Shown: piece by piece, positions 5,568 to 6,034 of the stretch
Layout: each line of letters begins with the position of its first letter
Position numbering within the stretch: the first letter of the stretch is position 1
From: a virus
Taxonomy: Duplodnaviria; Heunggongvirae; Uroviricota; Caudoviricetes
Direction: 5' to 3' (one strand)
Length of the DNA stretch: 6,379 nt
IMG/VR virus record: IMGVR_UViG_2541047166_000019
Program-made: the position numbers and the translations under genes
Notes under the pieces: generated by a model
What the model saw: the letters and a program-made list of their open reading frames with translations, nothing else
Databases searched by the model: none
Told to the model about the DNA's origin: nothing

Positions 5568-5591
5568 CCGATATGGGAATTCCCATATCGG
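5568..5591. promoter_or_regulatory. 24-bp perfect palindrome centred on GAATTC, immediately upstream of the hok promoter
   Basis: CCGATATGGGAATTCCCATATCGG is its own reverse complement. It ends 10 bp before the proposed hok -35. No T-run follows on either strand, so a protein-binding site is more likely than a terminator. Confidence 0.35.
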
Positions 5592-5600
5592 GCGAAAACG

Positions 5601-5629
5601 GTTTGCTGTAACGGCAGAGTTAAGTAGGA
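5601..5629 (+). promoter_or_regulatory. Candidate promoter of the hok/mok mRNA
   Basis: -35 TTTGCT/TTGCTG (5601..5607), 16-17 nt spacer, -10 TAGGAT (5624..5629). This places the transcript start at about 5635, exactly where the sequence conserved with the plasmid R1 hok mRNA 5' end begins. Confidence 0.4.
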
Positions 5630-5664
5630 TTGCTGCGGGTGCTTGAGGCTATCTGCCTCGGGCA

Positions 5665-5741
5665 TGAACACCAACGGCAGATAGATAAAAGCCCCACCCG
5701 ACTATAAATCGAAGTGAGGCCCCTATATGCTCGTCACATAT
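5665..5741 (-). ncRNA. sok: Candidate Sok-like antisense RNA (position by analogy with plasmid R1 hok/sok; ends approximate)
   Basis: On the minus strand a -35 TTGACC (5770..5765) sits just upstream of the mok SD, as in R1. The -10 at the equivalent distance is poor (AATCTA with a 19-nt spacer, or TATATG at 5741..5736 with a 23-nt spacer). A possible 3' hairpin plus CUUUU lies around 5665..5700. Presence and activity are uncertain. Confidence 0.3.
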
Positions 5742-5939
5742 AGATTGCCTCTTACGGACCGAAAGGTCAAGGAGAAGCAGGCTATGAAGCAGCAAAAGGC
5801 GATGTTAATCGCCCTGATCGTCATCTGTTTAATCGTCATAGTGACGGCACTGGTAACGAGGAAAGACCTCTGCGAGGTACGAATCCGAACCGGCCAGACG
5901 GAGGTCGCTGTCTTCACAGCTTACGAACCTGAGGAGTAA
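5727..5939 (+). CDS. mok: Mok-like reading frame (in-frame N-terminal extension of Hok), 70 codons
   Basis: ATG 5727 gives MLVTYRLPLTDRKVKEKQA followed by the Hok sequence. It has the same length and N-terminal pattern (ML.T.R.PLTDRKVKEK.AMKQ) as MokC of E. coli as I recall it. Confidence 0.55.
   Translation: MLVTYRLPLTDRKVKEKQAMKQQKAMLIALIVICLIVIVTALVTRKDLCEVRIRTGQTEVAVFTAYEPEE
5784..5939 (+). CDS. hok: Hok-family type I toxin (HokD/RelF-like), 51 aa
   Basis: MKQQKAMLIALIVICLIVIVTALVTRKDLCEVRIRTGQTEVAVFTAYEPEE is the Hok/Gef family signature and is near-identical to E. coli HokD as I recall it. SD GGAG (5771..5774) precedes ATG 5784. Confidence 0.9.
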   Translation: MKQQKAMLIALIVICLIVIVTALVTRKDLCEVRIRTGQTEVAVFTAYEPEE

Positions 5940-6007
5940 GAGACCAGGCGGGGGAGAAATCCCTCGCCACCTCTGATGTGTCAGGCATCCTCAACGCACC
6001 CGCACTT

Positions 6008-6034
6008 AACCCGCTTCGGCGGGTTTTTGTTTTT
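6008..6034 (+). terminator. Rho-independent terminator of the hok transcript
   Basis: ACCCGC-ttcg-GCGGGT hairpin (6009..6024) followed by TTTTTGTTTTT (6024..6034). Confidence 0.8.

Follow-up and report, generated by a model that had tools for sequence, protein, structure and literature searches.

The 6,379-nucleotide (nt) stretch of DNA analyzed here (IMG/VR virus record IMGVR_UViG_2541047166_000019), referred to as the window, is a segment of a lambdoid prophage. Its positions 5595-6035 very probably constitute a hok/mok/sok type I toxin-antitoxin cassette carrying a hokD allele, which lies as a moron after the gene paa in a prophage of the Escherichia coli O157:H7 type and would work in the same way as the hok/mok/sok system of plasmid R1. 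An earlier note, made from the sequence alone, had described a complete-looking hok/mok locus at this place, and the description held: the sequence holds the full set of R1-paradigm cis elements, all of them foldable, the pairing of tac with fbi is stable, and the Shine-Dalgarno (SD) sequence and ATG of mok are intact. The sequence elements, folds, covariation and homologies reported below were obtained directly in this analysis. Read from left to right, with the strand given after the coordinates, the cassette holds the following features (ORF, open reading frame; bp, base pairs):

5602..5630, plus strand: inferred hok promoter, with a -35-like TTTGCT (5602-5607), a 17-nt spacer, a -10 TAGGAT (5625-5630) and 6 nt to the +1 position.
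5637..6031, plus strand: predicted full-length hok mRNA, about 395 nt.
5637..5648, plus strand: tac (translational activator) box, GGGUGCUUGAGG.
5681..5735, minus strand: predicted Sok antisense RNA, 55 nt from 5735 to 5681, with a 9-nt free 5' tail, a hairpin of -21.4 kcal/mol and a CUUUUAUCUAU tail.
5689..5697, plus strand: ucb, or anti-SD, box, AAGCCCCAC.
5716..5719, plus strand: mok SD, GAGG, 7 nt 5' of the ATG at 5727, as read from the sequence.
5723..5743, plus strand: predicted Sok-target hairpin, a 7-bp stem holding the mok AUG, with a loop CUCGUCA that begins with the YUNR-type CUCG.
5727..5939, plus strand: mok ORF, 70 amino acids (aa), in frame 0 relative to hok and with a common stop codon, arranged as in mokC/hokC of strain K-12.
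5742..5770, minus strand: inferred sok promoter, with a -35 TTGACC (5770-5765), a 17-nt spacer, a -10 CAATCT (5747-5742), 6 nt and a +1 G.
5770..5774, plus strand: hok SD, AGGAG, the start of homology with K-12 hokD.
5784..5939, plus strand: hok toxin ORF, 51 aa, a HokD allele with Ile17; RefSeq product 'type I toxin-antitoxin system toxin HokD'.
5947..5968, plus strand: 9-bp hairpin, stable and expected to shield the 3' end of the processed (truncated) mRNA, placed where the R1 type has GGCGGGC...GCCCGCC.
5989..6001, plus strand: fbi (fold-back inhibition) box, CCUCAACGCACCC.
6008..6035, plus strand: intrinsic terminator and right edge of the cassette, a 7-bp GC-rich stem (6008-6025) followed by the TTTTTGTTTTT T run.

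The Rfam family RF01794, which is named 'sok' although it models the sense-strand hok leader, matches 5637-5786 on the plus strand over its entire length (model positions 1-157 of 157) at a score of 103.9 bits (E = 1.7e-23; gathering score, 59). The 5' end of the mRNA was set by this match, which runs from model position 1, and by identity with GGGUGCUUGAGG 5' ends elsewhere, while the 3' end was set by the terminator. The predicted mRNA (5637-6031) has a folding energy of -163.8 kcal/mol (z = -6.4 relative to dinucleotide shuffles), and none of 100 shuffles was as stable. In both the minimum-free-energy and the centroid fold, tac (5637-5648) pairs with fbi (5989-6001) over 12 bp with C5995 bulged (P about 1); the duplex is worth -21.5 kcal/mol, a value equalled by two of 200 shuffled 3' untranslated regions (UTRs). 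The complementarity between the two ends had been placed at 5633-5647 and 5988-6003, and the folded helix agrees with this to within a few bases. Two further pairs that exist in the DNA (5635-5636 with 6002-6003) lie upstream of the transcription start at 5637 given by homology. The strong terminator that had been proposed was also found. A sub-threshold match to Salmonella isrK in Rfam (24.9 bits, E = 0.028; gathering score, 50) spans the 3' UTR hairpin and terminator (5948-6029); it may be due to chance, or some prophage small RNAs may derive from the 3' ends of hok.

Partition-function folding predicts a switch between alternative states. In the full-length mRNA, the anti-SD (5691-5697) pairs with 5714-5720 over the mok SD (P 0.99), and the hok SD region (5772-5779) is paired with 5746-5753. 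When the mRNA is cut at 5988 or earlier, tac (5637-5644) pairs with ucb (5689-5695) with a probability of 0.66-0.98 depending on the 3' end point, and the probability of anti-SD/SD pairing after truncation is 0.02-0.30 (0.02-0.07 for 3' ends at 5985-5988). Within the first 40-50 nt of the transcript, tac pairs with the adjacent 5655-5672 as a metastable hairpin. The predicted folds thereby reproduce all three states of the R1 mRNA: closed, truncated and re-paired, and metastable at the 5' end.

The same pairings are conserved and covary among hok loci. Thirty-one loci were compared, from phages, plasmids and genomes of Escherichia, Kluyvera, Pseudocitrobacter, Photorhabdus, Pantoea and Erwinia. 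The R1-type reference locus was found by a Hok peptide search; a search of plasmid DNA in distant mode did not reach R1-type hok, and its weakest matches (e.g., L008) were isolated leader fragments on IncY plasmids. In an alignment-free test of the 31 loci, every intact locus has, 340-382 nt downstream, a complement to the first 13 nt of its mRNA, and this complement is missing only from an IS186-disrupted hokC and a Shigella pseudogene. Compensatory changes between tac and fbi include GGGUGC/GCACCC versus GGGCGC/GCGCCC (U-A to C-G), GAGG/CCUC versus GAGA/UCUC (G-C to A-U), and GCC/GGC in hokB (U-A to C-G). In an alignment of 20 sequences, 93% of the cells of the closed structure can pair, versus 39-49% when the partners are slid, and the alignment pair 4/427 is UA in 13 sequences, CG in six and UG in one. 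For the tac-ucb helix the figure is 98.6%, its columns covary, and the tac change of hokB is matched in both ucb and fbi. Where loci have no bulge, the outer half of fbi is wrongly placed in the full-length alignment, so that the unpaired cells in columns 418-423 are artefacts; these loci are covered by the alignment-free test. Coupled covariation of tac, ucb and fbi was reportedly published by Gultyaev and colleagues in 1997.

The toxin itself is readily recognized. Pfam PF01848 (HOK_GEF) matches over its full profile with 77.2 bits against a cut-off of 22, and 50 of the 51 residues are those of K-12 HokD, the sole change being T17I, in agreement with the HokD-like assignment made earlier. 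The match to the NCBIfam Hok subfamily lies below the curated cut-off (44 versus 73 bits), but RefSeq still names the identical O157 protein HokD. An in-frame Mok extension had been taken as a special feature of the locus. It is indeed present (5727-5939), and the SD context GAGGC is invariant in the 20 aligned loci, but it does not distinguish this copy: mok is in frame with hok in 20 of the 31 loci, including K-12 mokC/hokC and the R1-type plasmid locus (L012), and was therefore dropped as a distinguishing feature. An out-of-frame mok in R1 was not borne out by L012. As a separate observation, Tyr47 of hok is encoded by UAC within UACG (5922-5925), just as in K-12 hokD. [quoted passage not shown]

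The predicted Sok RNA aligns position by position with the annotated K-12 sokC (b4413), start site included, and its fold resembles those of sokC, sokB and the R1-type Sok. The promoter layout of sokC corresponds as well (TTGACC, 17 nt, CACTCT, 6 nt, +1). The -10 of the window sok promoter, CAATCT, is weak, agreeing with the consensus at two of six positions, and was not reported by a promoter scan; sokC, an annotated small RNA in K-12, has an equally poor -10. The predicted Sok has a single-stranded 5' tail that complements the target hairpin at the mok SD/AUG region; the YUNR-type loop of this hairpin is of the kind that Franch and colleagues are said to have linked to a U-turn motif in 1999. 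Between the paa-hok spacer (5499-5510, GCATGTAGGGGC) and the mok start (5719-5730, GCCCCTATATGC) there is a 12-nt inverted repeat (92% complementary), which would place a short Sok-like segment in any transcript reading through from paa; chance may well account for it.

The segment that encodes Sok stands apart from the rest of the cassette. Positions 5690-5770 are at most 80% identical to any sampled locus, the closest being hokC, whereas the flanking parts (5' leader 5637-5689, coding sequence (CDS) and 3' UTR) are 95-99% identical to ordinary prophage hokD/hokW loci. Its middle element is 20 nt long, compared with 41 nt in most prophage copies. This allele of the core is present at full length in 617 of 5,426 complete E. 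coli genomes, at a median of one place per genome, and nothing is annotated over it. From these comparisons, the core looks like an exchanged segment that determines antitoxin specificity. If so, a core swapped into flanks that are otherwise 98-99% conserved would let many hok loci coexist in one O157 genome without cross-talk. The divergence of the core makes the locus a naturally occurring test case for antitoxin specificity within the set of 14 Hok/Gef genes counted in O157 Sakai (PMC2887945).

In plasmid R1, pairing of tac with fbi closes the full-length mRNA and ucb sequesters the mok SD; 3' trimming then gives a tac/ucb stem that leaves the mok start open to ribosomes and Sok, while a metastable 5' hairpin blocks premature translation (PMC9841398). 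The 3' stem-loop that protects the processed R1 mRNA is described in the same source. Transcription, processing, action of Sok, toxicity and biological role of the window locus can be projected from R1 and from hokW-sokW of the Sakai prophage Sp5. A weak promoter would give rise to an mRNA of roughly 395 nt, in which tac would first be held in the local metastable hairpin and then pair with the 3' fbi, closing the molecule, with the mok ribosome-binding site sequestered by the ucb/anti-SD box. Slow 3' trimming to the hairpin at 5947-5968 would remove fbi, and the ensuing tac-ucb pairing would free the mok start region. This region would then either be bound by the 55-nt Sok, followed by decay through RNase III, or, once Sok had decayed, be translated, and translation of mok would drive that of the membrane toxin Hok. 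With mok in frame, an N-terminally extended Hok would presumably be made too.

The window carries, in order, a repressor/cro region, replication genes, a DUF1627 gene, a decayed fimbrial gene, paa and hok, and it is 99.4% identical to E. coli O157:H7 chromosomes. The cassette (5595-6035) is 100% identical to O157:H7 prophage DNA annotated as hokD; over its 441 bp, conservation is 100% within O157:H7/O55:H7 and 97-98% among other lineages. It has the orientation of cro, the replication genes, paa and the downstream DUF968/RusA/Q genes, and it sits between the replication genes and the DUF968/RusA/Q region, as hokD does in the Qin prophage of K-12, which bears out the nin-like position proposed earlier. 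The identification of the upstream neighbor as a binding-protein moron holds as well: 4690-5448 has a solute-binding-protein fold (Pfam SBP_bac_11) and the RefSeq name 'AcfC family adhesin Paa'. Between paa and hok lies one further canonical element:

5450..5480: paa terminator, a hairpin (5450-5473) followed by a T run.

A frameshifted fimbrial pseudogene precedes paa in O157 and in AMSHJX01. The O157 prophage bearing the hokD locus is often defective, with an IS1203 insertion and pseudogenes.

Both ends of the cassette (at about 5595 and 6035) are mosaic junctions. On the left, homology of other hok cassettes to the window starts only at 5595-5618. On the right, identity to the O157 genomes and to other cassettes stops at 6035, the exact end of the hok terminator; beyond this point, O157:H7 genomes and K-12 Qin carry a segment of approximately 380 bp with rem, which the window lacks, and the gene downstream of 6036 in the window is only 86-91% identical to the O157 and AMSHJX01 versions. 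The same cassette DNA occurs in about 11% of complete E. coli genomes, where it is annotated as hokD beside paa. RefSeq annotates only the toxin CDS here (hokD), neither mok nor sok being given, and close homologues in phage records are annotated as gef, hok, 'host killer protein', mok or MokW. Near-identical E. coli-type hokD sequences were also seen on very short contigs or in records of unrelated taxa, i.e., Xanthomonas pisi (L027), Acinetobacter idrijaensis (L023), a metagenome-assembled genome (L048) and an Actinobacillus phage (H42). These probably reflect contamination or mis-assignment in public assemblies and not a real host range.

The K-12 hokD (relF) of the cryptic prophage Qin had been described as sitting behind relBE without the regulatory elements, and most of this stood. 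RelE is encoded directly upstream, and the promoter, tac, ucb, mok start and sok are missing, but fbi and the terminator are kept. Only the part running from the hok SD (AGGAGAAGCAGGCTATG, about 5771) to the terminator can be aligned between K-12 hokD and the window, approximately 260 nt with three substitutions; by this comparison K-12 hokD is a 5'-truncated derivative behind relBE. Judged by a CDS and 3' UTR that are near-identical, the window copy belongs to the hokD allele group as named by RefSeq, and it provides a clean natural contrast to the truncated K-12 locus. The proposal that it is the more ancestral copy did not survive in its plain form. The diagnostic K-12 states, ACC (Thr17), GACCC and GTGGCAGG, together with the rem-side 3' flank, are common to an intact locus of the Rac/Qin type (L013) and partly to another (L007), and are not found in the window, which also has its own Sok core. 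Since the single-nucleotide states and flank of K-12 match these hok-rem loci, the window copy is not the progenitor of K-12 hokD but, on the alleles compared, a sister allele, and 'more ancestral' is at most loosely right.

Immediately to the left of the cassette, and outside it, is a perfect palindrome:

5568..5591, no strand: 24-nt palindrome CCGATATGGGAATTCCCATATCGG, 5' of the hok promoter.

It is predicted to form a hairpin of about -18 kcal/mol without a U tract, and is far beyond chance for a 6.4-kb window. The earlier note had included it as the beginning of the locus, with a 5' leader hairpin. The palindrome is real; its place, however, is ahead of the -35 region, 46-69 nt upstream of the inferred +1, and homology with other loci begins to its right (5595-5618), so it is not an element of the hok leader. 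The conserved hairpins of the true leader are 5649-5657/5676-5684 and 5723-5729/5737-5743. The palindrome is absent from the Sp5, Rac, Evi, IncY, hokC and R1 loci. A classical terminator was ruled out, as there is no U tract on either strand, and so was a sequencing or linker artefact, as the palindrome is at a fixed site in closed O157 genomes and is a natural in-frame part of KilA-N proteins.

The exact 24-mer was found in 97 contigs (52 viral and 45 metagenomic). Besides the window, the observations on it draw on L053, L054, L065, L075, L082, L085, L094, L103-L145 and L252-L331. In 53 of the 97, the copy adjoins a hok leader; 40 of the 52 viral contigs have the paa-palindrome-hok arrangement of the window, while in at least four (L053, L068, L079, L083) the palindrome upstream of hok follows an ORF6N/Ash gene instead of paa. 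In many of the other 44, it falls within KilA-N genes, on contigs of 27-64% GC, at one position of the domain (...LS[AST]-DMGIPIS-[EG]L...KGG); two KilA-N genes carry it at that domain position but read it in a different frame (RYGNSHIG). Free-standing copies were seen in several unrelated intergenic contexts. KilA-N genes were also retrieved with degenerate peptide patterns, which are unbiased for codon choice, and none of the 27 distinct genes that encode DMGIPI[ST] departs from the 24-mer at more than two positions (0-2 mismatches). Among 18 representatives with less than 80% nucleotide identity, codon-pair identity at the D, G, I, P and I columns is 1.0, 0.78, 1.0, 0.71 and 1.0, compared with mostly 0.15-0.6 at other conserved KilA-N residues and 0.8-0.9 at a few two-codon residues (e.g., Phe). 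CCC and ATA, used in the motif columns, are in the minority in the rest of these genes, and the codons of the motif are essentially fixed across genes of 33-61% GC. Because the motif codons are near-fixed relative to other conserved residues, the constraint appears to act on the nucleotides themselves, which suggests selection on the palindrome as an operator, an RNA element or a recombination hotspot.

The window palindrome could be a free-standing copy of this element, conserved within a widespread subfamily of KilA-N phage genes, serving as an operator for a dimeric DNA-binding protein (possibly KilA-N) or as a recombination/gene-conversion hotspot, but we regard this as very doubtful. In considering a KilA-N relic, only 14-16 codons near the palindrome were found to resemble KilA-N (S-DMGIPIS-GENGLL versus T-DMGIPIS-GKNGLI), no GTWVHP motif occurs near it in the window, and no KilA-N gene stands beside the paa-palindrome-hok arrangement within the stretches fetched. 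No description of the palindrome, or of its sharing with KilA-N genes, was found in the searchable literature. If the proposal were true, the palindrome would tie hok expression to a phage regulator or mark a junction at which hok cassettes are swapped between prophages, and its sharing with KilA-N genes is the only item here that could lead somewhere new.

Several observations weigh against an R1-like working cassette. The hok promoter was placed by positional homology to other hok loci (TAGAAT) and the R1-type locus (TATGAT), and because a consensus scan of 5400-6150 reported no sigma-70 sites, both promoters are assigned by homology only; each matches the consensus at seven of 12 positions. 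Both the window and O157 have TAGGAT as the hok -10, where AMSHJX01 and the Sp5-like, Rac, Evi and Klebsiella-record copies have TAGAAT, possibly a down-mutation affecting the toxin promoter. After truncation, the guanines of the SD are for the most part still paired in the predicted fold, within a weaker local hairpin (P unpaired 0.01-0.37); what thermodynamic folding predicts is release of the anti-SD and not a fully open SD. Lastly, a preprint (10.1101/2025.08.07.668861, citing Pedersen and Gerdes 1999) reports that intact chromosomal hokA, hokB and hokC show neither post-segregational killing nor activation by rifampicin. In a rival reading, the locus is intact in structure and physiologically silent: it would be a passenger, domesticated or in decay, with promoters too weak, or with too little mRNA from its single copy, to kill the host or stabilise the prophage. 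The weak promoter matches, the poor -10 sequences and the failure of the chromosomal loci in that preprint favor it, and single-copy chromosomal toxins may be harder to activate (PMC1635323). Yet all cis elements are intact and the cassette is conserved to the degree given above, the R1-type hok -10 likewise has G at position 4, the sokC -10 is no better than that of sok, and the K-12 HokD peptide is toxic on expression (preprint 10.1101/2025.08.07.668861). Moreover, hokW-sokW of Sp5, a single-copy prophage locus, has been shown by experiment to be a functional type I toxin-antitoxin system in which HokW is toxic and is neutralized by sokW (PMC8621323). A silent passenger seems unlikely, and on its sequence the window copy is plausibly 'potentially active', as had been proposed.

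If the cassette does work in the R1 manner, its main role could lie in lysis: at induction, rightward early transcription through the cassette in the sense direction and loss of Sok would allow Hok to permeabilize the inner membrane and hasten lysis and release. This would suit its co-orientation with cro, the replication genes, paa and DUF968/RusA/Q, and the same has been proposed for Sp5, where treatment with mitomycin C was followed, in dependence on RecA, by the disappearance of sokW RNA and the appearance of HokW, and where deletion of hokW-sokW halved the phage yield (PMC8621323). The canonical terminator and the palindrome between paa and hok speak against it, as does the frequently defective state of the O157 prophage that carries the locus, and we hold a mainly lytic role to be possible but somewhat unlikely. 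The alternative of prophage addiction or abortive-infection defense, in which loss of the prophage, or an infecting phage that shuts off host transcription, depletes the unstable Sok and frees Hok, draws on R1 hok/sok, which gives post-segregational killing and lowers the plating of T4 and whose architecture is the same as here, and on the roughly four-fold enrichment of hok genes in prophages (preprint 10.1101/2025.08.07.668861). On the other side, hok is not enriched beside defense systems, according to the same preprint, which also gives the failed killing tests of chromosomal loci; it is improbable that this is the principal role.

The R1-like toxin-antitoxin cassette recognized here is of an ordinary and already catalogued kind, hok loci being known to be abundant in pathogenic E. 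coli. Its value lies mainly in annotation, as roughly 600 complete E. coli genomes can be supplemented with the mok ORF, the Sok RNA and the boundaries of the mRNA. It also adds one more intact prophage hok/sok module, beside a virulence moron (paa), in enterohaemorrhagic E. coli (EHEC). As hokW-sokW affects phage release in EHEC, deleting the window locus may matter for studies of prophage induction.

Among known systems, hok/mok/sok (parB) of plasmid R1 has the same elements in the same order (tac, metastable hairpin, ucb, mok, Sok, hok, 3' hairpin, fbi), with the Sok promoter inside mok, as predicted in the window, and the same switch from a closed to an open state by folding. The R1-type and window loci share about 62-72% nucleotide identity, depending on the segment. 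The tac-fbi stem has 12 bp and one bulge in the window compared with a shorter GGCGCUU/AAGCGCC core in the R1 type, the leader is 147 nt long instead of the 168 nt of R1, and the window locus is carried by a prophage and that of R1 by a plasmid. HokW, which is closely related to the window Hok, is 44% identical to R1 Hok (Takada et al.). The hokW-sokW locus (Sakai prophage Sp5 and Stx2 phages, 933W group) is likewise prophage-borne, has an in-frame mok of 70 aa, and is about 86% identical to the window in DNA. The 5' leader (98%) and CDS (95%) are close and tac/fbi is identical, whereas the Sok core is only 72% identical, with a hairpin insert of 41 nt in hokW where the window has 20 nt. The sok promoters are also distinct (TTGCCT, 17 nt, TAACCT in hokW; TTGACC, 17 nt, CAATCT in the window), as are the C-termini of Hok (VDYESEK against TAYEPEE). 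The intact form of hokC/mokC/sokC (gef) is the closest to the window in the Sok core (80%) and has the same short middle hairpin, the same sok promoter layout and start, and an in-frame mok of 69-70 aa, while its CDS and 3' UTR are 85% and 74% identical, respectively, and its site is in the chromosomal core genome (nhaA-dnaJ) and not, as in the window, in a prophage.

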